NCBI GenBank assembly: GCA_949841595.1
Contig: CATKZB010000005.1
Span: 2,178 to 66,177 of the forward strand
DNA length: 64,000 nucleotides
Direction of reading: 5' to 3'
DNA from: an uncultured Christensenella sp.
GTDB taxonomy: Bacteria > Bacillota > Clostridia > Christensenellales > UBA1242
The position numbers and the translations under genes are program-made. The notes below the pieces were generated by a model, which saw only the letters and a program-made list of their open reading frames with translations, did no database searches and was not told the DNA's origin. Of this stretch, positions 33,734 through 62,774 are shown piece after piece (the first letter of the stretch is position 1; every line of letters begins with the position of its first letter).

Positions 33734-33786
33734 TTCGACAAGTTCTGATTTATCGCGACAAAATTACCAATTTTTTTATTTCGTCA
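33734..33786 (+). promoter_or_regulatory. cluster of Spo0A-box (0A box, TGNCGAA) motifs upstream of the spo0A-like gene
   Basis: TTCGACA at 33734-33740 is the reverse complement of TGTCGAA. TTCGTCA at 33780-33786 is the reverse complement of TGACGAA. A degenerate TCGCGACA lies at 33753-33760. All three are in the same orientation, 67-119 nt upstream of the ATG. Confidence 0.45.
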
Positions 33787-33852
33787 TTTTGTTATTATGT
33801 GGTATCTTTATCATGTTTTTGCAAGAATACAAAATTTAAAGGAGTAAAAATC

Positions 33853-34602
33853 ATGGAAAACATTATAGAAAACAATATGCCGAAAATTTATTTCGCAGAC
33901 AACACAGAAGAAAATTCAGTTATGGAATATTTTAAAAAGAGTGAAAATTTCAACTTTGTGGGAGCAAGCTCTGACGGGCTTAAAGTTGTCAAAGATGTTG
34001 AAGCTTTGAAACCCGATGTTTTGGTTATGGAAGTTATGCTTTCAAATCTTGATGGATTTGCAGTTTTGGACAAAGTGAAAGAACTTAAGGATATGATGCC
34101 AAAAGTGTTTTTCATTTCAAATTTGTCACACAGTGGTTTTGTGACAAAGGCAATTCAGTCAGGAGCAAGTTATTTTATGGTTAAACCTGTTTCTCCAGAA
34201 AACTTGGAAAACAGAATTTTTGAAGTTTTAAACAACGGTAAAAGCAAGGATGGAAACAAACAACTTGATGAAAAGATTTCAAATATTTTTATCAGCATTG
34301 GCATCCCTGCGCATATAAAAGGTTATCAGTTCCTTCGTGAAGCTGTGAAGCTGGCAGTTGAAGAGCCTGAAATCATTGGTTCTATCACCAAAAAACTTTA
34401 TCCAACGATTGCCGAAAGGTTTGAAACAAGCTCAAGCAAAGTTGAAAGAGGTATGCGTCATGCCATTGAAGTTGCGTGGAACAGAGGAAAAATTGAAAAT
34501 ATAAACAATATTTTCGGATTAAAGATATATAATAGAAATGAGAAGCCTACAAACGGCGAACTTATCGCTTTGATTGCAGACAAAATGATTATGGACGGCT
34601 GA
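33853..34602 (+). CDS. spo0A: Spo0A-family response regulator with an atypical receiver domain (Glu at the phospho-acceptor position)
   Basis: The C-terminal domain closely matches the Spo0A DNA-binding domain: GIPAHIKGYQFLREAV, GSITKKLYP.IA..F.TSSSKVERGMRHAIEVAWNRG, KPTNGELIALIADK. In the receiver, PDVLVMEVMLSNLDG aligns with PDVLVLDIIMPHLDG of B. subtilis. ATG at 33853 has an AAAGGAG SD, and the ORF-track start at 33718 is rejected. Confidence 0.85.
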   Translation: MENIIENNMPKIYFADNTEENSVMEYFKKSENFNFVGASSDGLKVVKDVEALKPDVLVMEVMLSNLDGFAVLDKVKELKDMMPKVFFISNLSHSGFVTKAIQSGASYFMVKPVSPENLENRIFEVLNNGKSKDGNKQLDEKISNIFISIGIPAHIKGYQFLREAVKLAVEEPEIIGSITKKLYPTIAERFETSSSKVERGMRHAIEVAWNRGKIENINNIFGLKIYNRNEKPTNGELIALIADKMIMDG

Positions 34603-34660
34603 TTTAGCACAAAATTACTCAAAAAATTGAATAATTTATAAAAAAATTTTGAATAAGGTA

Positions 34661-34689
34661 TTGAATTAAAATTTTTGATGTGCTATAAT
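34661..34689 (+). promoter_or_regulatory. sigma-A-type promoter (TTGAAT-17-TATAAT with TG extension)
   Basis: TTGAAT at 34661-34666, a 17-nt spacer ending tgc, and TATAAT at 34684-34689. AGGAGG and ATG 34713 lie downstream. Confidence 0.65.
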
Positions 34690-34712
34690 ATGCCTAACTT
34701 AGGAGGTATTTT

Positions 34713-36332
34713 ATGTCTAGAACACTCTCAAAAATTTTAGTTACGTGTGCTATGATAGCTGTTTTCCCACTTATTATTGTTGGGACAGCATTTGCAGCTT
34801 ATTTCTCTATAGACGCAAGTGTAAATGTAGGTGTTTACACAAATCAATTGTCACCTGCTGTTGATGCATATGCACAAGTGCTCTATAATGGAAAGGCTAA
34901 TTCTGACAAAATTCTTATCAAACAAGGACACACAAACACAATAGAACTTAAAGCAACTGCAAAAGGTTATGATTTCAAAGGCTGGTTTGCTGGAGATAAA
35001 GAATCATATGCAGCTGCTCATCAAGCAGGCACTGTTAAATTTGCAATGGAAGACGATGTTGTTACTGTTGGCATGACAGACTATCAAAAACTTTTGGCAG
35101 TTTTTGAAATTCAGGAAAATGAAGTTTCATATGCTTATAAAGCGACTCCAGATGCAACAGAAAACACATTGACTACTCCAGAAACAGATGATAGTGATGC
35201 CACAACAAAAATTTATTATTATGGAGAAAATCTTCCAATTTTGGTTGCTCCAACAGCTCAATATTCATTTGGTGGTTGGAAAGTGGTTGGAGATGAAACA
35301 AACACTATCTATACTCAAGCAACATTCTCTGGTTTGAAAGACATTACTTTGGAAGCAGTTTGGAATGAAAATCTTGAAATTAAAGTGAACTATTATAATA
35401 ACAAAAATGACGAAGAGCCTCTTTGGATAGAAACTGACATTGTTTACCAAAATCAAGAATACACATTGAAAAAATTGGAAAACTTTAAACCTGATTTTGC
35501 AAAAGAAGCTGGCTATGCATATAGCTGGGTTGATGGAGAAGGTAATGCAATTACAAAAATAATCTCAAAAGAAGATGTTAATGTCTATCTTGCTAAAACA
35601 GCCATCAATTATAGTGCAGCATTAACAATAAATGAAAGTGATGAGGCATTTATCAGCACAAACGTTGCTACAGATGTAAACTTTACAGCAGAAAATATGA
35701 GTGCTTTGGAAGCATGGTTTAATGTTGAAAATTGGAATATAAAATATTCATTCCATAAATTTATAGGAATAAAAGTAGGTGAAACAACTTATACAGATTT
35801 CGACACTTTTAAAACTGTTGCAGAAAACTTGATCAACGCAAACCCAGATGGACCAAAAGATAATAAAATATCTGCAGAAGTTGTATTAGAGAAGAATTTC
35901 ACAAAAGTTGAAGTTACTGAAAAAGTTTCTTACAAACTTGCTCATGCTCAAAATCCTAACATTGCAATTGACAACATTTACACAGAAGCTGGATCAGTTA
36001 AAGATGAAATTACTGGCGAAAATGAAGTTAATTCAATAGACAATATTTTGGAATTGATTCATATGGATGAAAATTCTAAATTCTATGATGCAGATAAAAA
36101 TGCAGAAACACGTAATCCTGTTGAATTGTCAAGAGTAAGAGTCACAATCAACGGAACTCAAAAAGTTTACAGAGTTTCTGCAAATATGACAGTTAATGAT
36201 TTGATTGAATTGATTGTGCAAGATTATACCCTTGATGGCGTTGATATTTTGACAATTTCAACAGTTGAGGTTATCTTCAACAGAACTGCTGTTGAAACAG
36301 AAACTCCAACAGAACCTGATTTTGTAATCTAA
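34713..36332 (+). CDS. membrane-anchored surface protein with Listeria-Bacteroides-type repeats
   Basis: The N-terminal hydrophobic anchor is ILVTCAMIAVFPLIIVGTAFAAYF. Flg_new-like motifs are KGYDFKGWF, YSFGGWKV and GYAYSWVDG. An AGGAGG SD is present. Confidence 0.6.
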   Translation: MSRTLSKILVTCAMIAVFPLIIVGTAFAAYFSIDASVNVGVYTNQLSPAVDAYAQVLYNGKANSDKILIKQGHTNTIELKATAKGYDFKGWFAGDKESYAAAHQAGTVKFAMEDDVVTVGMTDYQKLLAVFEIQENEVSYAYKATPDATENTLTTPETDDSDATTKIYYYGENLPILVAPTAQYSFGGWKVVGDETNTIYTQATFSGLKDITLEAVWNENLEIKVNYYNNKNDEEPLWIETDIVYQNQEYTLKKLENFKPDFAKEAGYAYSWVDGEGNAITKIISKEDVNVYLAKTAINYSAALTINESDEAFISTNVATDVNFTAENMSALEAWFNVENWNIKYSFHKFIGIKVGETTYTDFDTFKTVAENLINANPDGPKDNKISAEVVLEKNFTKVEVTEKVSYKLAHAQNPNIAIDNIYTEAGSVKDEITGENEVNSIDNILELIHMDENSKFYDADKNAETRNPVELSRVRVTINGTQKVYRVSANMTVNDLIELIVQDYTLDGVDILTISTVEVIFNRTAVETETPTEPDFVI

Positions 36333-53543: not shown

Positions 53544-54149
53544 ATGAGAAGTGGAATTTTAAAAAATATGGATGAAGTGTTGAAATCTTTTGACAATGTC
53601 AGATTGACAATTTTTAACTATGCAGTTTACACTGTAAGACAGTTTGTTGATAATGGCTCAATCATTTATGATTTGATGTATGGAAAGACAAAAGTTGGAA
53701 TGTTGGAACTTATGCTGTTGGAAAGAGACGATAAAAGAATAAGTAACATGAAGTTATGTGCAAAAGAAGTGCCAGAGAAGTTTTTCTATTTGCAAGGAAT
53801 TGATATTTTTGAAAAATACCAAAATATGCACTTGGGAACGCAATTTTTGAATTTTGTTTTTAAAGATATTGAAAATTACAACAAAGAACACAAAACTGAT
53901 TTAAAACTGTTGTTATATCGAGCAAACAGCAAACAAACTCTCCCTTTCTATAAGAAGTTTGATGCGAGATACAATGACATAAATCCTACAGACAAATTTG
54001 ATAAATATTGTTATATGATTGTCGATGAAGTAAAACACAAAGAAAAATTTGATGGCAAAAAAATCTGCCCAATCAAATTGATTAAAGCAGATTTGCAAGG
54101 CAAAAGTGATGTTACAACAAAAGATATAATCTGTGAAAAACAATATTAA
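53544..54149 (+). CDS. hypothetical protein, possibly a GNAT-type acetyltransferase
   Basis: IDIFEKYQNMHLGTQFLNFV resembles GNAT motif A, and LPFYKKFDARY resembles motif B. There is no SD, and the ATG lies 7 nt after a TGtTAGAAT -10 element. Confidence 0.4.
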   Translation: MRSGILKNMDEVLKSFDNVRLTIFNYAVYTVRQFVDNGSIIYDLMYGKTKVGMLELMLLERDDKRISNMKLCAKEVPEKFFYLQGIDIFEKYQNMHLGTQFLNFVFKDIENYNKEHKTDLKLLLYRANSKQTLPFYKKFDARYNDINPTDKFDKYCYMIVDEVKHKEKFDGKKICPIKLIKADLQGKSDVTTKDIICEKQY

Positions 54150-55963
54150 TTTTCTGTTTTGAAATAATCTTTGATTTTTATTGCCAAGGCTTGATGAATC
54201 CCTTTAACAAGGCACAATTCTTCAACTGTGGCATTTTTTATGTTTTCTGTTGTGCCAAAGGCTTTAAGAAGTGCATCTATCTTTGTTTTGCCAAGCCCAT
54301 TGATGTTTTCAAGTTCGGTCACAGTTTGACTTTTTGTTCTTAAAGTTCTGTGGAATGTTATGGCAAATCTGTGAGCTTCATCACGAAGTCGTTGCAAAAG
54401 TTTAAGTTCTGCACTTGCATATTTCAAAATTACAGGAGTTGTGTTTTCAACAGTGAAAACCTCTTCAATTCTCTTTGCCAAAGAAATCATTTCGATTTTG
54501 TTTTCAAGATGAAAACTTTTCAAAATTTCATAACAAGAAGAAAGTTGTCCCTTCCCACCGTCTATCACGAGAAGATCGGGCTTTTCTTTGAAACTTTCTC
54601 CGTTTTGATCAACATATCTTTGCAGTCTGCGAGTTAGGGCTTCTTTTAAAGATTCAAAATCGTTGTTGCCCTCCACAGTTTTGATTTTAAATTTGCGATA
54701 ATGTTTTTTTGCAGGGCGTCCGTCAATGAAAACAACCATGGAAGCGACTTTGTTTGTTCCACTTATGTGAGAAATGTCATAGCATTCCATGCGTTTTGGC
54801 AGAGATTTGAGCCCAATTTTGTCTTGAAGTTGTTTCAAAGCCCCAAGCCCAGTGTTGTATGCCAATTTTTCTTTTTCTAGATGTTTTTCTAAATATTCTT
54901 TGGCGTTTTCTTTTGCCATATGGAGCAATGTAAAGTTTACACCATGTGGATTGGAGATTATTTTTGTTTTTTTGTTGAGATATTCACAAAGAAGAGCTTC
55001 GTCTATTGCGTGGCTGACAATGATTTCATTTGGCACAAGCATGTTGGCATAATATTGTGAAATGAAGTTAAACAAAGTTTCGTTTTCTTCAAGCTCAGCA
55101 TCACTTTGAACGAAATTTGCTATGCCAAGAATTTTTCCGCCTCTGACCACCATAACGGTGACAACGCCACTCAGTCCGTCACTGTGATAAGCAAAAACAT
55201 CTTTGTTTACATCTTTTGGAAGATTTGCCACGACGCGTTGTTTGAGTTTTGCAATCATTTTCAAACCTTCACGGAGTTCAATTGCTCTTTCAAAGTTTTG
55301 CAAATTTGAAGCAGTTTCCATTTTTTGTAGCAAAATTTCTTCTATCTCTGCGTCATTGCCATTTAAAAAACGAATGACTTTTTTTATTTCTTCAGCATAA
55401 TCCTCTTTGGTTATTTTTCCAGTGCAAGGTGCTGGGCATAGCCCAAGAGAATAATTTAGGCATTCTCTCTTTGCATTTGGGGTGTTGGTTATTTTAAGTG
55501 AACAAGTTCTGATTTTGAAGGCAAAATTTATTGTCTTTAAAATCTCTCTTGGGTCAATACCTGCAAAATAAGGTCCAAAATATTTTGCATTCGGCTCATT
55601 TTTAACTTTTCTGACAATTTCAAATCTTGGGAAGTCTTCTTTCATGTCGATTTTTATATAAGGAAACGCTTTTCCGTCCTTAAGAAGAATGTTGTAAAAT
55701 GGTTGATGTTTGTGAATTAAATTGCTTTCAAGTGCAAGGGCATCAAGTTCTGAAACAGCAATAAAATAGTCAAAATCATCCACATGGTCAACCATTGCTT
55801 GAACTTTGCTTGGTTTTGGCGAAGATCGGAAGTATTGGCTTACTCTGTTTTTCAAATTCTTGGCTTTTCCAATGTATATAATCTCTCCACTTTTGTCACG
55901 CATAACATAAACACCAGGCTTTGTGGTGAGAGTTTTAAGTTTTTCTCGTATTTTTTCATTCAT
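54146..55963 (-). CDS. uvrC: excinuclease ABC subunit C
   Basis: GIY-YIG N-terminus (GVYVMRDKSGEIIYIGKAKNLKNRVSQYF), the UvrBC-interaction and endonuclease V-like regions, and a C-terminal (HhH)2 (INGLGKTKIDALLKAFGT). 605 aa. Confidence 0.93.
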   Translation of the reverse strand: MNEKIREKLKTLTTKPGVYVMRDKSGEIIYIGKAKNLKNRVSQYFRSSPKPSKVQAMVDHVDDFDYFIAVSELDALALESNLIHKHQPFYNILLKDGKAFPYIKIDMKEDFPRFEIVRKVKNEPNAKYFGPYFAGIDPREILKTINFAFKIRTCSLKITNTPNAKRECLNYSLGLCPAPCTGKITKEDYAEEIKKVIRFLNGNDAEIEEILLQKMETASNLQNFERAIELREGLKMIAKLKQRVVANLPKDVNKDVFAYHSDGLSGVVTVMVVRGGKILGIANFVQSDAELEENETLFNFISQYYANMLVPNEIIVSHAIDEALLCEYLNKKTKIISNPHGVNFTLLHMAKENAKEYLEKHLEKEKLAYNTGLGALKQLQDKIGLKSLPKRMECYDISHISGTNKVASMVVFIDGRPAKKHYRKFKIKTVEGNNDFESLKEALTRRLQRYVDQNGESFKEKPDLLVIDGGKGQLSSCYEILKSFHLENKIEMISLAKRIEEVFTVENTTPVILKYASAELKLLQRLRDEAHRFAITFHRTLRTKSQTVTELENINGLGKTKIDALLKAFGTTENIKNATVEELCLVKGIHQALAIKIKDYFKTEN

Positions 55964-55969
55964 AAAAAT

Positions 55970-55997
55970 ATTTTAACATTTTTTTTGAGTTTTACAA
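55970..55997 (-). promoter_or_regulatory. uvrC promoter (TTGTAA-16-tgtTAAAAT) placed for a leaderless transcript
   Basis: Minus-strand TAAAAT (plus 55970-55975) ends 7 nt before the A of the uvrC ATG. No SD is present. Confidence 0.45.
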
Positions 55998-56090
55998 ATT
56001 ATTTTGCCTGACTGAAAAATTTTTCTGAGAATAACTCTTCAAATACTTAAATATTTTTAGACATTTTGAAGGTTATTTTAAAGAAATATG

Positions 56091-56119
56091 TTGTAATTTG
56101 TAATTTTATTTGTTATAAT
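56091..56119 (+). promoter_or_regulatory. sigma-A promoter TTGTAA-17-TATAAT (TG-extended)
   Basis: TTGTAA at 56091-56096 and tgtTATAAT ending at 56119. The ATG at 56118 lies inside the -10 element, which argues for the ATG at 56148 as the start. Confidence 0.6.
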
Positions 56120-56147
56120 GAAGAAAATAGAAGCAGGAGGATTGCAA

Positions 56148-58499
56148 ATGTCAACTTCAATGTTATTGGGTATGTTTGATTGGATTGCTGATTTTTTCAA
56201 AGCATTATTTGATCTTATTCCAAAAATAATGTATTTGTTGTATTCATCATTGGCATGTGTTTTGGATGTTTTGCAGCTCTTCTTCAGAAAACTCGCAGGT
56301 CTTGATGTTTATTATGTGGATGGAAAAGCAGTTACTGGTGACTTGGTGACCAATTTCATCACTGGCATTTTGGGTATTAATGCAGAAGGTTTTCAATATT
56401 CTGCTCTTACAACTGTTTTTTGGTCTTTCATTGTTTTTGGTGTTATTGTTTGTTTTGGTTCAACAATCATCGCTGTTATAAAAAGTCATTATTCTTATGA
56501 CGATAAAGCAGCAAAAGGACCTATGCAATATGTTTACACAGCTGGAAAGGCAATCATCAACATTGTTGCTGTTCCTGTGATTGTGGTTTTGGGGCTTTAT
56601 GTTTCCCAAGCGCTTTTGACGGCTCTTGACACAATGACTTCAATTTCAAGTGGAAATGTAACTTCAATTTTTGGACAGATTGAAGAAGAACGATATGACA
56701 GTAATGGTCAATTAATTAAGGTCAAAGTCAACATTGCAGACAGATTGTTGAAATCTTCAAGCTCTTCACGTACACAATCAGATGAAAAGACTTTTATTTA
56801 TTATGATATATTTGGATATGGCAGTAATATTTTCTATGGATTAAATTCGGACGAAGGGGCTGTCCCAAGTGACAATGCTTGTGCATTGATTGCTGCAAAA
56901 AATCAAACCTTCTCAGGCTCATTGTTTAGAGTTGCTGCATACAACGGAAATCGTGCAAGATTGAGACAAATTGCTCCTAAGGCTGAAAATTTTTCTGGAA
57001 CAAAATCGGGAGAACTGTTTTCAAACACAAATGACCCAGAAGTTTTGGCAGATATGATTGATATGGCATTTGCTTGCAATTTGCATTTGCAAAAGAATAT
57101 GCATTTGGACTATTCTTCAGATGGGCAAAGTTTGGCAGCAGGTGACTGGACAAGCATGAAATATTTCACCAACTTTTTAACTCAAAATGCTTCAGCATTT
57201 TCAAAGTTTAATGTTGGTTTGGTTTGGTATTATTACGACTTATGGAACTTCAACTTTATTGTTGGATTTGCTGGATGTATTGTTTGTGTGACTTTGTTTA
57301 TAAACATAATTATGGGTCTGATAACAAGATTGTTTATGTGTGTTGGACTGTTCTTGGTTGCACCTCCACTCTTTGGCTTGTCTCCACTTGATGGTGGAAA
57401 AGCTGGAAAGAGCTGGCGAGAAAACTTCATGAAACAAGTTTTGATGGCTTATGGTGCTGTTGTGGGCATGAACATAATGTTCTTGATTTTGCCTTACATA
57501 AACGAGATAGATTTCTTCAACATTCCAATCGCTGATTATTTTGCTCAAACTTTGATTATCATTGTTGGACTTATCACCATCAAAGCCTTCATTGCAACTT
57601 TGTCTGGACTTATTGGTGGAGCAGATGCAAATGAAACTGGTGGAAAAATTTCAGAAGAAGTTGGTCAAGTTGCAGGTAAAGCGACACATATGACTCTTGG
57701 AGCTGCTAAATTTGCAGGTAAGACTGTCAAGAATGGTGCTTCTTTGGCAGGAAATATGGCAATGTCTACTTATCATGCTGGAAATTCAATAAGACATCAA
57801 GTGCAAGCACATAATGCAGATAAAAAGGCTAATGACATCAATAATTTAGAGAAAAAAGAAAATTTGTTAAATCAATTTACAAGAACTAAATTCGATGATT
57901 TAACAAAAGAGCATGTTATGAAGCAAGCTATGGATGCTGGTTTGTCTAAGAAAGAAGCTAAAAAGATGTCTGAAGCAGTGGAGAAATCTAAGGAACGAGT
58001 AGGTTCTGCTGATGCGTGGAATAGTCTATCAGGCGCTGATAGAACTATAGCTAGTGCACATATGAGAGATGATCTCAAGAAAGAGGATAAAAGTTATAAA
58101 AAGTATGCAGATTTTGACTCTGCTCGTCGTATTCAAAAATATGTAGAATATTCAGATAAAGCAGTAAAACATAGAGATAAGTTTGATCAAGCTGTTGTTA
58201 AATCAAATGCAAGACTTGATCGTGCTGGTGGAAATGTTAAGGGCTTATGGAAAGGATTAACCGGTATTGCGACAGACGTTTATGATGATACATTTAAAGA
58301 TGATAAAGTTATAGGTACATTCCTTGATAAATCAAAAATTAAACAAAAACCTAATTGGGATAAGATGTCTTATAAACAAGATAGTGATGCTTTGGCTCAA
58401 AGTAAGTTTGCTAACTGGATGCAAGAACAATCTATGTTAGGAAGCACTCCAACTGCAGCTGAAATTAGAGCTAAGAAGGAAGAACTTGGAATTAAGTAA
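56148..58499 (+). CDS. large polytopic membrane protein with a long charged C-terminal domain, unknown function
   Basis: AGGAGG at 56135-56140, 7 nt before ATG 56148. About 8 hydrophobic segments in the first 500 aa or so, then about 280 aa of a Lys/Asp/Ala-rich soluble region. Confidence 0.7.
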   Translation: MSTSMLLGMFDWIADFFKALFDLIPKIMYLLYSSLACVLDVLQLFFRKLAGLDVYYVDGKAVTGDLVTNFITGILGINAEGFQYSALTTVFWSFIVFGVIVCFGSTIIAVIKSHYSYDDKAAKGPMQYVYTAGKAIINIVAVPVIVVLGLYVSQALLTALDTMTSISSGNVTSIFGQIEEERYDSNGQLIKVKVNIADRLLKSSSSSRTQSDEKTFIYYDIFGYGSNIFYGLNSDEGAVPSDNACALIAAKNQTFSGSLFRVAAYNGNRARLRQIAPKAENFSGTKSGELFSNTNDPEVLADMIDMAFACNLHLQKNMHLDYSSDGQSLAAGDWTSMKYFTNFLTQNASAFSKFNVGLVWYYYDLWNFNFIVGFAGCIVCVTLFINIIMGLITRLFMCVGLFLVAPPLFGLSPLDGGKAGKSWRENFMKQVLMAYGAVVGMNIMFLILPYINEIDFFNIPIADYFAQTLIIIVGLITIKAFIATLSGLIGGADANETGGKISEEVGQVAGKATHMTLGAAKFAGKTVKNGASLAGNMAMSTYHAGNSIRHQVQAHNADKKANDINNLEKKENLLNQFTRTKFDDLTKEHVMKQAMDAGLSKKEAKKMSEAVEKSKERVGSADAWNSLSGADRTIASAHMRDDLKKEDKSYKKYADFDSARRIQKYVEYSDKAVKHRDKFDQAVVKSNARLDRAGGNVKGLWKGLTGIATDVYDDTFKDDKVIGTFLDKSKIKQKPNWDKMSYKQDSDALAQSKFANWMQEQSMLGSTPTAAEIRAKKEELGIK

Positions 58500-58509
58500 T
58501 TGGTGAACT

Positions 58510-58752
58510 ATGGGGATTTTGAAAAAGATAAAAGAAGTGGCTAAACCACTGTATGAAGATGATAAGTTTCTTGGAAGTTTTTTAGACAAATCAGGAATTG
58601 CTAAGAAGCCTAATTATCAAAAAGAAACTTACAAAGTTTTGGTTGAGAAAAACAAACTTGCTGAGACTCGCAACAAAATTCTTGAATGGCAAGTTCTTAA
58701 TCCAGGCAAAACAATGCCACAAGATGTCCTTGACAAAATCAAAGAAAAATAA
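58510..58752 (+). CDS. small protein paralogous to the C-terminal module of the preceding membrane protein
   Basis: YEDDKFLGSFLDKSGIAKKPNYQKETYK aligns with FKDDKVIGTFLDKSKIKQKPNWDKMSYK (nt 58299-58376). A terminator follows. Confidence 0.6.
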   Translation: MGILKKIKEVAKPLYEDDKFLGSFLDKSGIAKKPNYQKETYKVLVEKNKLAETRNKILEWQVLNPGKTMPQDVLDKIKEK

Positions 58753-58753
58753 A

Positions 58754-58781
58754 AAAAGCAGAGATTGTTCTCTGCTTTTTC
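58754..58781 (+). terminator. rho-independent terminator
   Basis: aaaagcagaga-ttgt-tctctgcttttt. Confidence 0.8.
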
Positions 58782-58933
58782 TTTTGTTTATAAATTTACA
58801 CTTATCAAAATGGCACACATTTTGGCACACTTTCGTATTACGAAGAATAAATCTAGCTAAATTTGTTCTACAAGTAAATAACAAAAAATCGCTATACATA
58901 CGTAATTGCAGAATATATTGCGATTTAATAGTT

Positions 58934-58960
58934 TGGTGGTGATAACTGGGATCGAACCAG
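58934..58960 (-). repeat. 27-nt exact duplicate of the 3' end of tRNA-Met (T-arm 3' half, acceptor and CCA), not part of a complete tRNA
   Basis: tggtggtgataactgggatcgaaccag at 58934-58960 is identical to 59040-59066. The flanking sequence cannot form the 5' acceptor strand (there is no tatcacc between the two copies). Confidence 0.9.
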
Positions 58961-59009
58961 AAAGGTTTATACTCCACTACGTTTCGTATAAGTTCACTGG
59001 TCCTAAAGA

Positions 59010-59034
59010 TAAAAAACAGAGCATTCACTCTGTT
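59010..59034 (-). terminator. rho-independent terminator of tRNA-Met
   Basis: Minus-strand hairpin acagag-tgaatg-ctctgt followed by T6, a few nt after the tRNA CCA end. Confidence 0.7.
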
Positions 59035-59039
59035 AATCC

Positions 59040-59116
59040 TGGTGGTGATAACTGGGATCGAACCAGTGACCTTATGGGTATGAACCATACGCTCTAGCCA
59101 GCTGAGCTATATCACC
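59040..59116 (-). tRNA. tRNA-Met (anticodon CAT, elongator-like; a lysidine-modified tRNA-Ile2 cannot be excluded)
   Basis: A 77-nt perfect cloverleaf: GGTGATA/TATCACC, GCTC/GAGC, TATGG-TTCATAC-CCATA, ACTGG-TTCGATC-CCAGT, and an encoded CCA. There is no C1:A72 initiator mismatch. Confidence 0.9.
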
Positions 59117-59140
59117 TTATTGAGATAAGAAAACATTGAA

Positions 59141-59169
59141 ATTATACATTATAAACCCTTATTTGTCAA
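59141..59169 (-). promoter_or_regulatory. consensus promoter of tRNA-Met (TTGACA-17-TATAAT)
   Basis: Minus-strand TTGACA (plus 59164-59169), a 17-nt spacer, and TATAAT (plus 59141-59146). Confidence 0.7.
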
Positions 59170-59257
59170 TTATTTTAAGAAAAATTTTGAGTGTTTTTGC
59201 TTTTGCTTGCTTTTAAACTGAAAAATGTTTTAAAATAACAATAAAAGGAGAAGGTTT

Positions 59258-59683
59258 ATGATTGAAGAAGAAATTAAAAAAGCAAACATTGAAGCTATGA
59301 AAAAGAAAGATAGTGTGGCAAGAGCTTTTTATAGTGTGCTTATGACAAAAATTATGCTTGAAAGAATTGCAAGAAGAGAAAGTGGAAAAGATCTTACTGA
59401 TGCTGATGTTTCAAACATCATTCAAAAAGTTATAAAAGAATTGAATGACGAAAAAGAAAATTACCAAAAAGTGGGAAATGCTGAAGAGGTTGCAAACCTT
59501 GAAAGACAAATTCAACTTGCTTCTGCATATCTTCCAAAAATGCTTTCTAAGGGTGAAATAAAGGAGATTATTTTGGGGTTGGACGACAAGTCGATTCCTT
59601 TTGTTATGAAACATTTTAAAGCAAATTTTAATGGACAAGTGGACATGAGACTTGTTCAAGAAGTTTTGAAGGAACTTACATGA
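59258..59683 (+). CDS. GatB/YqeY-domain protein
   Basis: 141 aa. I..A.KA.K.KD......L......I...E.....L.D.....I..K..K....S.. is the YqeY-like pattern. An AAGGAGAAGG SD is present. Confidence 0.7.
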   Translation: MIEEEIKKANIEAMKKKDSVARAFYSVLMTKIMLERIARRESGKDLTDADVSNIIQKVIKELNDEKENYQKVGNAEEVANLERQIQLASAYLPKMLSKGEIKEIILGLDDKSIPFVMKHFKANFNGQVDMRLVQEVLKELT

Positions 59684-60375
59684 AAGTTTTTGCAATAAGT
59701 GACTTGCATCTTTCTGTAAACAATCCAAAACCGATGAACATCTTTGGCCCAACATGGGAAGGTTATTTAGACAAAATTTTTGCAGACTGGAAAGAAAAAG
59801 TTTGTGAAGATGACGTTGTTTTGATGGCTGGCGATTTTTCTTGGGCAATGAAATTGGAAGAAACCAAAGCAGATTTTGAGTTGTTAAAAAACTTGCCTGG
59901 GAAAAAAGTGTTGATAAGAGGCAATCATGACTATTGGTGGAGCAGTATCAGTGCAGTGAGAAAGTTTGTTCCTGAAAACTTTTTTGCTATTCAAAATGAC
60001 GCTATCAAGTTTGGTGATTACATCATCTGTGGAACAAGACTTTGGACGTTGCCTGACACAGCAAAAGTTTTAAGTGCTGAAGATGAAAAAATCTATAAAA
60101 GAGAACTTATTCGTCTTGAAATGACTCTTCAAAGTGCAAAGAAATTGCAAATTTCTGATGAAAAAATTATTTGCATGTTGCACTATCCACCTTACACCTT
60201 CAAGGAAGAAGATAATGAGGTCACAGCACTGATTGAAAAATATGGCGTAAGCAAGGTGGTTTATGGGCATATTCATGCAAATTGCAGGCAAAATTTGATT
60301 TTAAATAAAAATGGTGTGGATTATTATTTAACTTCATGTGACATTGTTGGAAATCGCTTAATCGCAATAGATTAA
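59680..60375 (+). CDS. metallophosphoesterase (calcineurin-like phosphoesterase family)
   Basis: ISDLHLS, AGDFSW, RGNHDYWW and GHIH motifs. An ATGA start/stop overlap with the upstream gene. Confidence 0.8.
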   Translation: MKVFAISDLHLSVNNPKPMNIFGPTWEGYLDKIFADWKEKVCEDDVVLMAGDFSWAMKLEETKADFELLKNLPGKKVLIRGNHDYWWSSISAVRKFVPENFFAIQNDAIKFGDYIICGTRLWTLPDTAKVLSAEDEKIYKRELIRLEMTLQSAKKLQISDEKIICMLHYPPYTFKEEDNEVTALIEKYGVSKVVYGHIHANCRQNLILNKNGVDYYLTSCDIVGNRLIAID

Positions 60376-60410
60376 GCGTTTTTACATCTTTTTAAGATGT
60401 TGAAAATTTA

Positions 60411-60439
60411 TTGACAATTTGGGCAATAATAGGTATAAT
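60411..60439 (+). promoter_or_regulatory. consensus sigma-A promoter TTGACA-17-TATAAT
   Basis: TTGACA at 60411-60416, a 17-nt spacer, and TATAAT at 60434-60439. Confidence 0.7.
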
Positions 60440-60470
60440 TAAAAAGCTATAAAATTTATTGGAGAATTTG

Positions 60471-61913
60471 ATGAAAAAAATTACAAAGACTTTATGTGGA
60501 GTTGTTGGCAGTGTTTTGGGGTTAAGTTTTTTGGTGGCAGGTTGTGCAACAGTGCCATCTATCAAAAACACAGATTCTGAATTGATATACAATGGCAATG
60601 CAGCAGTTATGGTTGACGGCTATCTCTATTATGGGAATGCTTTTGCTGATTATTCAACTTTTACGAGTGATGGAGATTACAACAAGAGTGTTGCTGTTTC
60701 TTATTTGTCAAGACTCAACACAAACATAGACTTGGCTGCAAAATCAAAGGATTATTCACCTAAATCTGTGGAGAAAGTTGCAGATGAAATCACTGCTCAA
60801 GGGAAAGCATTCACTTTTGTTTTGGGTGATCACATATATTATTCAACTCCAAACCGACAAAAATTTTCTGATGAAAATGGAAAAGCAAGTCATTATTTCA
60901 ACTACAGCACAATTTACAGAAGTAATTTGAATGGTGACAATAAAGAAAAAGTTTACACAACCAATGGAGAAGTTTCTCAAATTGAGACTTTGAAATTCAA
61001 CGGAAGATATTACATCGTTTTACTTGCTGGAGAAAACTTGGTTAAGATTGAAATAGGCAACAAAGTGTCAGCAGAGACTATTTCTGACAGTGCAAAAAGC
61101 GTGGCTATTCCAAAAACATACCAAAAAAAGAAAGATGGAAGCACTTTGAATTGGAATGGAGATATTTATTTCACAGAAGAAAAATCTGATGAAGATAATG
61201 GACTTTCTGGAAGCATTGTAAAAAAAGTTTCTGTTGCTGGTAGTGAGACAAAACAAATTTTCCACAAAAATGGTGCAACATTGAAATTTGTTGGCAGAGA
61301 AAGAGACGAACTCTTTTATTCCTTGTCAAATGAAATTTATAAGATAGATTCAAACTCAATCACAGGACAACCAAATTTTGCAAGTGATAACAACAGATTT
61401 TATTCTGCTTCAACAATTTCAAACTTAAATTTGATTGCAACGGAAAATTATGAGTATGGATACGTCTTCACAACATCTTCTAATGCACTTGTTTATGCAA
61501 CAAAAACAGGAAAGTTTGGTTCAATTACATTAAAAAATGGTGATACAGCACTCTCTTCTTACAAAATTTTGTTGATTTCAGGCAGAACGATTTATGTTTC
61601 AACAACCACAGGAATTTATAAGGCGACACTTTCTGGTATTTTCAGTGGAAATGGTGGAAACGTTGAAATTGAATGTGAAACTATTGTTGAAATGACTGCC
61701 ATTTATGACGGAACGTTGTGTGCATTTGATAAAGATTACATCTATTATTATGCAAAGCTTGAAACTGTTGAAAAAGATGAAGATGAAACAGAAGAGACAA
61801 CTGAAGAAACAGATGACAACTATTACCTTTATAGAGCAAGAGTGGGAGTGACATCTGCAGATGGATACGAACTTTTGGGACTAACAAAAATTGCTTCAAG
61901 ACACACAAAATAA
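60471..61913 (+). CDS. lipoprotein of unknown function (possible beta-propeller; repeated IYY/LYY motifs)
   Basis: MKKITKTLCGVVGSVLGLSFLVAGC-ATV is a lipobox signal. GGAG lies 6 nt before ATG 60471, and the TTG at 60459 is rejected. Confidence 0.65.
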   Translation: MKKITKTLCGVVGSVLGLSFLVAGCATVPSIKNTDSELIYNGNAAVMVDGYLYYGNAFADYSTFTSDGDYNKSVAVSYLSRLNTNIDLAAKSKDYSPKSVEKVADEITAQGKAFTFVLGDHIYYSTPNRQKFSDENGKASHYFNYSTIYRSNLNGDNKEKVYTTNGEVSQIETLKFNGRYYIVLLAGENLVKIEIGNKVSAETISDSAKSVAIPKTYQKKKDGSTLNWNGDIYFTEEKSDEDNGLSGSIVKKVSVAGSETKQIFHKNGATLKFVGRERDELFYSLSNEIYKIDSNSITGQPNFASDNNRFYSASTISNLNLIATENYEYGYVFTTSSNALVYATKTGKFGSITLKNGDTALSSYKILLISGRTIYVSTTTGIYKATLSGIFSGNGGNVEIECETIVEMTAIYDGTLCAFDKDYIYYYAKLETVEKDEDETEETTEETDDNYYLYRARVGVTSADGYELLGLTKIASRHTK

Positions 61914-61920
61914 TTTTAAT

Positions 61921-61951
61921 AAATCTACGATAGCTTCGTAGATTTTATTTT
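61921..61951 (+). terminator. rho-independent terminator
   Basis: aaatctacga-tagct-tcgtagattt followed by T-rich sequence. Confidence 0.8.
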
Positions 61952-62033
61952 TGTTATTTTGATTGTTGAAATTTAATGTAACATGTCGAAAATTAGTTGA
62001 TTAAATCGAAAAATTGTGTTATATCTAAATTGA

Positions 62034-62774
62034 ATGAAACCAATTTTTAAAAAATACTTAATATGCATCAGTTGTGCTGTTGTTGCAATATTGACAGGGC
62101 TTGGCATTTATCTTGGAGTTTCTCACTCAAATCCACCAGCCTTAGATGTTTCTATCAATAATTTTGATATTAAGGTTGGAGAAAAAGTTAAGATTGAATA
62201 TGATGTTTCAATCTCAGATGCAGTGATTTTTCTTGATGTGGACAAAAACCAAATAGCAAGTTTGATTCAGGAAAACGGAATAAATTATTTGACAGGCTGT
62301 TCAGAAGGAAAAGCAAACTTGACACTGATTGCCAAATATAGAAATCAAAAAGTTGAAAAGGTTGCAAAAGTTGTTGTTTCGGCAGTTTATCAAAAACCAA
62401 GTGAAGGTGATAACACAGGTTCTGAAGATACAAAAGATCCAACAAAACCAGAAAACCCTGATAAAGATGATGAAAAAGAAGACACCGAAAAAGAAGACGC
62501 ACTTTTACTTGAATTTTTGAATGTTCAAAATTGCTCTATTGAAAAGAATGTCATCAATATGAAGCAAAGTGTTTTGGCAATATTTTCTGTAAGTGCAAAT
62601 ATTTCAATCACAAATTTGCATATAGATTTGATTGCTGCTGACCTGTCTGATGATTTTGTTCAAGAAATTGGGAATAACACATTTTGCTTACTTTCTGACA
62701 TTTCAGGAGACTTTGAAATTGATTTTGTTGTGAACAATCAGTTTAGATTGAGATATCATGTGATTATCAAATAA
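62034..62774 (+). CDS. membrane-anchored hypothetical protein with a possible Ig-like (Big_2-type) domain and an acidic linker
   Basis: N-terminal anchor ICISCAVVAILTGLGIYLGV. The GKANLTLIAKY...VKVVV pattern is Ig-like. The linker is D/E/K/P-rich. No SD is present. Confidence 0.55.
   Translation: MKPIFKKYLICISCAVVAILTGLGIYLGVSHSNPPALDVSINNFDIKVGEKVKIEYDVSISDAVIFLDVDKNQIASLIQENGINYLTGCSEGKANLTLIAKYRNQKVEKVAKVVVSAVYQKPSEGDNTGSEDTKDPTKPENPDKDDEKEDTEKEDALLLEFLNVQNCSIEKNVINMKQSVLAIFSVSANISITNLHIDLIAADLSDDFVQEIGNNTFCLLSDISGDFEIDFVVNNQFRLRYHVIIK

Follow-up and report, generated by a model that had tools for sequence, protein, structure and literature searches.

A natural Spo0A with glutamate at the phospho-acceptor position, conserved in gut bacteria that appear to form the family UBA1242 (Christensenellales)

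In receiver domains of the CheY type, the acceptor aspartate and the second aspartate of the acidic (DD) pair hold Mg2+ for phosphotransfer, and helix α1 of canonical receivers is the docking surface for kinases and phosphotransferases. All Spo0A proteins studied so far are regulated by phosphorylation of the acceptor aspartate, and the D56A substitution lowers sporulation of Clostridioides difficile more than 1000-fold (bioRxiv 10.1101/2022.02.07.479450). In the present study we analysed the spo0A gene of a 64,000-nucleotide stretch of DNA (hereafter the window; positions 2,178 to 66,177 of contig CATKZB010000005.1, assembly GCA_949841595.1) from an uncultured Christensenella sp. of the GTDB family UBA1242. 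Its product has the same two-domain architecture as the canonical Spo0A proteins of Bacillus subtilis, Geobacillus stearothermophilus and C. difficile (structures 1qmp, 1dz3, 1lq1, 5wq0 and 9phz), and TGTCGAA boxes likewise precede its own gene. It differs from them in carrying glutamate (Glu60) at the acceptor position and in the loss of the second acidic residue; moreover, in the clade to which it belongs the Pro located four residues past the acceptor (canonical D-x-x-M-P) is Ser or Ala. The best reading of these features is that the window encodes a natural pseudo-receiver (aspartate-less) Spo0A, which would act without His-Asp phosphotransfer.

Among the known aspartate-less receivers (ALRs, or pseudo-receivers), Glu is the commonest replacement of the acceptor (26%); the first acidic residue (DD1) is kept in 65% and the Lys in 70%, and the second position (DD2), often changed to Asn, is acidic in only 29% (PMC4395418, PMC12632262). 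The described examples include ChxR of Chlamydia (with Glu as the acceptor residue), RitR, HP1043/HsrA and GlnR; the plant pseudo-response regulators (PRRs) also have Glu. The window Spo0A shares the ALR pattern, i.e. the D-to-E change, the loss of DD2, and the retention of DD1, the Lys and the Thr/Ser and aromatic switch residues, and it resembles ChxR also in its reduced-genome, dependent host (UBA1242 as portrayed in PMC12306168). Unlike the known ALRs, it has Spo0A_C as its output domain, which is mentioned as the partner of a pseudo-receiver in neither PMC4395418 nor PMC12632262; the former names Spo0A only for a laboratory D-to-E mutant, and the latter, a review from 2025, does not include Spo0A. 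Laboratory phosphomimetics (NtrC D54E and the Spo0A D-to-E mutant cited in PMC4395418) represent the same chemical change at the same position. In contrast to these mutants, the Glu of the present clade is natural, fixed family-wide and accompanied by further changes of the receiver. A full-text literature search, in which subscription journals were incompletely covered, found neither a natural Asp-less Spo0A, nor 'D56E', nor a pseudo-receiver connected with Spo0A. As judged from its sequence, the protein would be a member of the known pseudo-receiver class that, as a Spo0A, has not previously been described in the literature searched.

The spo0A open reading frame (ORF; Table 1) starts with ATG and is preceded by the ribosome-binding site AAAGGAG (positions 33838-33844). 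Its product scores 230.7 bits with the NCBIfam equivalog TIGR02875 (spore_0_A; cutoff 200), and Pfam assigns residues 25-122 to Response_reg (55 bits) and residues 142-244 to Spo0A_C (131 bits). In phmmer searches of the PDB, the N-terminal half matched the Spo0A receivers 1dz3/1qmp, 9phz and 5wq0, and the C-terminal half matched B. subtilis Spo0A-C (1lq1; E = 3e-36), the recognition helix being almost identical (SKVERGMRHAIEVAW in the window, SRVERAIRHAIEVAW in 1lq1). Thus, the protein has the architecture and the score of a Spo0A, together with the 0A-box helix and cognate TGTCGAA sites, to which binding is predicted from sequence. The hallmark of activation through a phosphorylated receiver Asp, which is D56 in both B. 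subtilis and C. difficile, is lacking, as Glu60 is found there. By sequence, therefore, the gene is a Spo0A orthologue, but not a phospho-activated Spo0A. In public annotation its relatives are plainly called 'sporulation transcription factor Spo0A'.

The phmmer alignments placed the query segment PDVLVMEVMLSNLDG over PDILLLDIIMPHLDG (1dz3) and PDVLVLDIIMPHLDG (9phz), which assigns Glu60 to the acceptor column. Similarly, 'FAD-NTEE' of the query lies over 'IADDNREL', i.e. the second acidic residue is absent or replaced by Asn17. At the positions of the CheY-like quintet (DD, D, T/S, K) the protein has D16, N17, E60, S89 and K111 (codon AAA, 34183-34185), with replacements at two of the five positions (DD2 and D). 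An AlphaFold2 (AF2) model of the receiver, built on 35 clade sequences, displays a canonical (βα)5 fold with predicted local distance difference test (pLDDT) values of 81-94 for residues 11-90. In the model, E60 is located at the C-terminal end of β3 (56-60), D16 past β1, S89 at the end of β4 (84-89) and K111 past β5. It superposes on phospho-Spo0A-N (1qmp_B) with a root-mean-square deviation of 1.3 Å over 118 columns; in Foldseek comparisons it fits 1qmp and unphosphorylated receivers alike, so that an active and an inactive state are not separable in this way. The model contains no alternative Asp at the end of β3, D55 and D67 being those of the canonical Spo0A 'PD' and 'LDG'. Misalignment concealing an Asp was also considered and rejected, since the AF2 strand boundaries are consistent with the HMMER alignments against three structures of Spo0A. 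The domain therefore corresponds to the definition of an ALR or pseudo-receiver: a PF00072 match of 55 bits, a (βα)5 fold in the model, and no acceptor Asp.

The original prediction, made from the DNA sequence, had described a Spo0A-family regulator with Glu60 (GAA, 34030-34032) in place of the acceptor Asp, with the second Asp of the acidic pocket lost (Asn17) and with the conserved Lys kept. The family assignment is borne out by the TIGR02875 score and by the presence of both Response_reg and Spo0A_C, and the three residues by the PDB alignments, the β3 position of Glu60 in the AF2 model and the invariance of K111 in the clade. The alignment of the acceptor column proposed along with it was run against Spo0A structures and confirmed Glu60 at this place.

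The Glu variant is a trait of the whole family and not of a single gene. A scan of the GTDB species-representative genomes identified 274 stretches with relatives, of which the best 80 (loci L001-L080, 71-89% identity) were analysed; each of these comes from a different assembly, and all are gut metagenome-assembled genomes (MAGs) from humans, mice, rabbits, deer and other animals. Two named matches are 'Candidatus Caccovivens' (GTDB genus UBA11517, family UBA1242, order Christensenellales), and one of the loci (L074) derives from the UBA11517 MAG; the clade with Glu-type Spo0A appears to be the family UBA1242. Glu occupies the acceptor position in 80/80 of these loci, as well as in all 120 of the 120 closest 90%-identity protein clusters (82-100% identity). 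When 80 full-length genes (those of 79 loci and of the window) were aligned by codon, Glu60 was invariant and encoded by GAA (58) or GAG (22). DD1 is invariably Asp16 (GAC 42, GAT 38), and F108, K111 and P112 are invariant as well, their codons varying synonymously. Position 89 is occupied by Ser (68) or Thr (12), and DD2 (position 17) by N (24), K (14), A (13), S (12), T (6), I (5), G (2), V (2), D (1) or E (1).

An identical 249-aa protein is encoded by 23 contigs of independent metagenome assemblies. Sequencing error was rejected on this ground and because Glu occurs clade-wide in both codons. A broader explanation, i.e. a sequencing or assembly artefact or else a relic decaying after the loss of sporulation, could draw on the lack of sporulation genes in the 64-kb window and on the strongly reduced genomes of the family (PMC12306168). 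It is scarcely credible in view of the 23 independent contigs, the use of two synonymous codons over 80 species, the dN/dS values far below 1 in both domains with no frameshifts seen, the conservation of the predicted binding sites, and the presence of SpoIIE, SleB, YpeB and CwlD in relatives (see below); as far as the artefact is concerned, the sequences have already refuted it.

Synonymous differences between pairs of genes were near saturation (median pS about 0.72-0.77). The ratio of nonsynonymous to synonymous substitution (dN/dS), calculated from 289 unsaturated pairs, was ~0.20 in the receiver. In the DNA-binding domain, whose mean column conservation is 0.97, it was 0.017. Together with the invariant Glu, these values argue that Glu60 is kept by selection, that the receiver, on this sequence evidence, is under purifying selection and still functional, and that the DNA-binding domain is very strongly constrained. 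Within the receiver, helix α1 is among the least conserved parts and the β4-α4-β5 region is invariant; K84 and the β4-α4 residues L91-S92-H93-S94-G95-F96-V97-x-K99-A100 do not vary in the clade and are variable among canonical Spo0As. This pattern also bears on a possible covalent modification of Glu60 (an acyl-phosphate or a methyl ester), by which the receiver would keep its signalling chemistry in a changed form. Although D16 and K111 are kept and phosphorylation or methylation of Glu is possible in principle (PMC4395418), such a modification is highly improbable, as the ALR survey knew of no example from bacterial signalling (PMC4395418), DD2 is lost and unconstrained, and helix α1 is poorly conserved.

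The origin of the change was traced with HMMER against 1.84 billion 50%-identity representatives, which yielded 858 proteins at E <= 1e-30. The acceptor residue was counted in the 110 full-length representatives within the best 150: 81 have Asp, and the other 29 have E (11), N (5), G (5), S (4), Q (2), A (1) or Y (1), a share (26%) that does not equal a family-wide frequency, as the list was ranked by likeness to the Glu-type query and the representatives were unweighted. In a neighbour-joining tree the UBA1242 sequences formed a single long-stemmed clade. The remaining Asp-less Spo0As were dispersed among Asp-type sequences, which implies many independent losses; the count of 29 among the 110 nearest representatives suggests that loss of the acceptor Asp recurs in scattered lineages of uncultured Clostridia. 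The nearest Asp-type relatives, including the cluster named 'Faecalibacterium sp.' (CCY04891.1), which we take to represent the CAG-1138/CAG-917 lineage, possess the canonical residues of the pocket (DD, D, M-P, S, K), and the Asp-to-Glu change therefore maps to the stem of UBA1242. Several of the Asp-type relatives placed nearest to the clade in the tree (P0127, P0128 and P0135) have kept the acceptor Asp and have partly or wholly lost the DD pair (NP, NT and ET), a pattern according to which erosion of the pocket may have several entry points.

Alternatively, the Glu-type gene could be a paralogue with a changed function, and sporulation would be run by a canonical, Asp-type Spo0A encoded elsewhere in the genome. 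The Spo0A_C domain does duplicate, as indicated by multi-Spo0A_C proteins elsewhere, and small ORFs consisting of Spo0A_C only lie near spo0A in three loci (L062, L072 and L074). This explanation is nevertheless very unlikely: the protein passes the Spo0A equivalog cutoff, the 80 assemblies contributed a single spo0A locus each (among the best 80 of the 274 stretches), its gene neighbourhood (YqeY, Metallophos, a ~484-aa gene, spo0A, a ~539-aa gene) is conserved and orthologous, its DNA-binding domain is under extreme constraint, the genomes of the family are mostly smaller than 1 Mb (PMC12306168), and none of the nearest Asp-type representatives was traced to UBA1242, only one of their clusters carrying an organism name.

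Upstream of spo0A, 55 of the 80 species have an exact 0A box (TTCGACA) between -106 and -162, despite diverged surroundings. In 44 of these 55 loci a second (C/T)GACA core follows exactly 20 nt on (approximately two helical turns), and a TGTG(T)TATCTT block, conserved in the upstream alignment, is located ~45 nt past the second core. Most of the other 25 species have boxes with one mismatch, e.g. TACGACA or TTAGACA. Window-wide enrichment of 0A boxes was not observed (8 matches versus 5.5 expected, 21 of 100 shuffles reaching 8). The informative test was that of conservation by gene family, for which we recorded exact boxes within 200 nt upstream of every family represented in the 80 loci. Boxes were found at 47/80 spo0A genes and at 17/35 homologues of the ORF at 62034-62774; the other families with at least 20 members reached 0-5% and the smaller ones (5-9 members) at most 25%, against a background of 9%. 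The conserved paired boxes argue that 0A-box recognition, paired-site binding and autoregulation of spo0A have probably been retained. The ORF at 62034-62774, whose 246-aa product has a membrane anchor at its N-terminus and matches no family, is a candidate Spo0A target in terms of its upstream sequence. A TGTGTTATAT element directly follows its 0A boxes and is located only ~9 nt before the ATG, which suggests that the mRNA may be leaderless.

In the Caccovivens subclade (L052-L074), the sequence TTAGACA(A/T)AACTC upstream of spo0A runs into a G+C-rich hairpin with a T-run, followed by the -10 element, and similar GACAAAAACTC-hairpin layouts are found upstream of spoIIE in L062, L072 and L073. 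This arrangement resembled the signature of a spo0A/spoIIE regulon, but a pattern scan detects it almost only at spo0A and the spoIIE sites differ in detail; it may be the terminator of an upstream gene, a regulatory element or a coincidence, and it is not used as evidence here.

In the window itself no other sporulation gene was detected by Pfam and NCBIfam (ORFs of at least 120 aa) or by motif scans of the smaller ORFs, in agreement with the original prediction. Turning to the relatives, we clustered 1,169 ORFs from the 80 loci, considered the clusters present in at least two loci without a window homologue, and scanned their representatives against NCBIfam (the first batch completely, the second in a hand-picked selection). 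This analysis identified (i) SpoIIE (TIGR02865) in 9 loci, with 366 bits (E = 3e-109, model positions 6-763 of 764; cutoff 490.8), (ii) CwlD (TIGR02883), full length, with 170 bits (cutoff 221.55; 17 ORFs in 16 loci), (iii) YpeB (TIGR02889) with 270 bits (cutoff 303.55) in L015, L017, L020 and L027, the Spo0A proteins of which are 83-85% identical to that of the window, (iv) SleB (TIGR02869) with 260 bits, above the cutoff of 236.5, and (v) SpoVG (NF009749) with 116.8 bits, above the cutoff of 108. At least 120 clusters are related to the SpoIIE of L062 (45-100% identity, with SpoIIE_N and SpoIIE), one of them named Ca. Caccovivens faecavium. An attempt to tie SpoIIE to the genus of the window through shared contigs failed, since the SpoIIE contigs retrieved come from a different genus, with an Amidase_6 that shares 60% identity with the one in the window, and rightward extension of the window added only rsmH and no SpoIIE. 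Regular-expression scans of 1.4 Mb of loci recovered no sigma factors, small acid-soluble spore proteins (SASP), SpoIVA or SpoVT, the patterns being too crude for this to be evidence of absence. The SpoIIE, SleB, YpeB and CwlD genes, which the relatives carry in the vicinity of spo0A, point to the persistence of at least part of the sporulation programme, and sporulation may, on these matches, persist in the family. Sporulation genes have been reported, as unexpected, in UBA1242 genomes (PMC12306168).

Glu60 and the unconstrained DD2 together make phosphotransfer from a histidine kinase or Spo0B very unlikely. The independence of a phosphorelay suggested in the original prediction is the most reasonable conclusion, given a Glu that is invariant over 80 species and a DD2 that is free to vary. 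The explanation that we favour as a whole, with a probability of roughly 0.6, is that of a pseudo-receiver Spo0A that neither a sporulation kinase nor a phosphorelay could activate any longer by His-Asp phosphotransfer. Contacts of Glu60 with Lys111 and Ser89 (and Asp16) would fix the pocket in one state, most likely phospho-like and competent for dimerisation. Promoter occupancy would then be set by the amount of Spo0A, via a positive autoregulatory loop at the tandem 0A boxes, with possible modulation by protein partners on the α4-β5 face. The regulator would probably still govern sporulation, because relatives keep SpoIIE, SleB, YpeB and CwlD; the trigger would be transcriptional or protein-protein, not phosphorylation. 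The weakest step is the phospho-like state locked by Glu60 combined with control by concentration, both of which we infer.

Several points weigh against this explanation. A D-to-E change alone was reportedly insufficient to activate Spo0A of B. subtilis (Green et al. 1991, as cited in PMC4395418), and in some pseudo-receivers Glu has been proved not to mimic phosphorylation (PMC12632262); that Glu60 makes Spo0A constitutively active is for these reasons a guess. The function of the 0A boxes is deduced from their conservation, the SpoIIE, YpeB and CwlD scores lie under the NCBIfam trusted cutoffs, the SpoIIE, SleB, YpeB and CwlD genes were found on loci of relatives in other genera of the clade and not within the window, and one ORF with a HisKA motif is present in L050. 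Furthermore, the variable α1 and the invariant β4-α4 segment (L91-S-H-S-G-F-V-x-K-A100) would also fit a partner-sensing receiver, and the α4 motif is common to the Asp-type sister lineage. The view that this motif was gained with Glu had to be toned down, as the Asp-type sister has a similar α4 (QLSGEGFVSKSL).

The rival to be taken most seriously builds on the same region. Here the pseudo-receiver would not be constitutive: Glu60 would be a structural filler, and the receiver would be switched by a partner, a ligand or another modification through the β4-α4-β5 face. Purifying selection on the receiver (dN/dS 0.20), the invariance within the clade of K84 and L91-A100 in a segment that is variable in canonical Spo0As, and the retention of the switch residues S/T89 and F108 speak for such a switch, and partner binding and other inputs are known mechanisms of pseudo-receivers (PMC12632262). 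However, no conserved partner gene was found in the 80 loci, where the sole conserved neighbour encodes a repeat protein, secreted or in the membrane, and has a promoter-like site of its own, and the α4 motif, similar in the Asp-type sisters, is not specific to the Glu variant. We regard this alternative as unlikely, though far from negligible, and retain the Spo0A locked by Glu60 and controlled by its dose as the preferred explanation.

The surroundings of spo0A fit the picture of UBA1242, an uncultured family with genomes mostly below 1 Mb (671-1,611 kb) that lacks most biosynthesis and parts of glycolysis and is probably dependent on partner cells (PMC12306168). The window has ~33% G+C and carries tmk, metK, mscL, ppa, uvrC, rpiB and ABC transporter genes, together with many ORFs without a family match. 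The coordinates of the features discussed are collected in Table 1.

Table 1. Features of the spo0A locus and of the candidate target in the window (positions of the 64,000-nucleotide stretch)
Feature	Position	Strand	Basis or remark
spo0A coding sequence, 249 aa + stop	33853..34602	+	ORF, TIGR02875, Pfam Response_reg + Spo0A_C
Receiver (pseudo-receiver) domain, residues 11-127	33883..34233	+	PF00072, (βα)5 model, dN/dS ~0.20
Acidic pair, D16 (GAC, 33898-33900) and N17 (AAC, 33901-33903)	33898..33903	+	Alignment; second Asp replaced
Codon 60, GAA = Glu, phospho-acceptor position	34030..34032	+	Alignment to 1dz3 and 9phz
Ser89 (TCA), counterpart of the conserved Thr/Ser at the end of β4	34117..34119	+	Alignment, model
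F108-M-V-K111-P112, aromatic switch residue and pocket Lys-Pro	34174..34188	+	Invariant in 80/80
Spo0A_C DNA-binding/activation domain, residues 136-249	34258..34599	+	PF08769 at 1.6e-38
Consensus 0A box TGTCGAA (minus strand)	33734..33740	-	119 nt 5' of the spo0A ATG
Second, partial 0A box CGCGACA (plus-strand reading)	33754..33760	-	Cores of the two boxes spaced 20 nt apart
Putative spo0A promoter, extended -10-like element TGTGGTATCTT	33798..33808	+	Conserved block TGTG(T)TATCTT; consensus match only
539-aa membrane-anchored protein, Flg_new repeats (weak matches)	34713..36332	+	Directly 3' of spo0A in 51/80 loci
Promoter-like site of the 539-aa gene, TTGAAT-17-TATAAT	34661..34689		
Tandem 0A boxes TGTCGAA (61984-61990) and ATCGAAA (62004-62010)	61984..62010	+	5' of ORF 62034-62774; cores 20 nt apart
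ORF 62034-62774, candidate Spo0A target	62034..62774	+	246 aa

The neighbourhood of spo0A is otherwise poorly syntenic across the 80 loci, and the 539-aa gene, which has a promoter-like site of its own, is the sole neighbour that stays beside spo0A across the clade. The genes spoIVB and recN, typical neighbours of spo0A in spore-formers, are not found beside spo0A here. Relatives have their genes arranged as uvrC, a ~800-aa gene, YqeY, Metallophos, a ~484-aa gene, spo0A, a ~539-aa gene and a ~250-aa gene. In the window, the pair formed by spo0A and the 539-aa gene (33853-36332) lies ~26 kb from the rest of this block (54149-62774), and the 484-aa and 246-aa genes are adjacent; the displaced pair and this new adjacency indicate a local rearrangement.

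Other observations concern mobile or unusual genes of these loci. The 793-aa ORF at 56118-58496 (+), located beside uvrC clade-wide, matches the MMCAP2_0566 conjugal-transfer family (109.6 bits, cutoff 90) and the Mbov_0396 transmembrane protein of integrative and conjugative elements (ICEs; 76.6 bits, cutoff 70), both being families of mycoplasma ICEs. In the loci L081-L083 of a close relative (Spo0A cluster P0048; 12.7-20.7 kb), the spo0A and 546-aa gene pair is directly followed by prophage-like or integrative elements that differ by strain; genes for an integrase, a cI-like repressor, ERF and SSB are among those that they carry. Stand-alone Spo0A_C-like ORFs of 87-98 aa with the motif SVERDIRYLLKK are present in L062 (~19.5 kb), L072 (~19.3 kb) and L074 (~19.3 kb), ~9 kb from spo0A, and two database proteins (P0122 and P0124) consist of four tandem Spo0A_C domains without a receiver. 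A giant ORF (6-29846, +; 9,946 codons), open at the left end of the window and 10,225-10,226 aa long in contigs of the same species, has matches to Flg_new (Listeria-Bacteroides) repeats and presumably encodes a huge surface or adhesin-like protein; it is worth mentioning given the mostly sub-megabase genomes and the supposed partner dependence of the lineage.

Spo0A is the textbook end-point of the phosphorelay, and a large, widespread gut family has fixed a probably non-phosphorylatable form of it, apparently while keeping sporulation and germination genes. Tentatively, and with somewhat more doubt than confidence, we suggest that a family with ultra-small genomes still sporulates without phosphorylation of Spo0A, either through the dose of a permanently 'on' Glu60 Spo0A, set at a self-activating promoter with tandem 0A boxes, or through a non-kinase partner, loss of the acceptor Asp being a recurrent route in uncultured Clostridia. 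The presence of spo0A serves as a marker of sporulation potential in surveys of MAGs, which ignore the function of the receiver. The UBA1242 proteins offer a natural experiment on the mechanism of pseudo-receivers, described as 'largely a mystery' in the 2025 review, as well as on a sporulation decision taken without kinases and on the minimal initiation circuit in a genome of less than 1 Mb.

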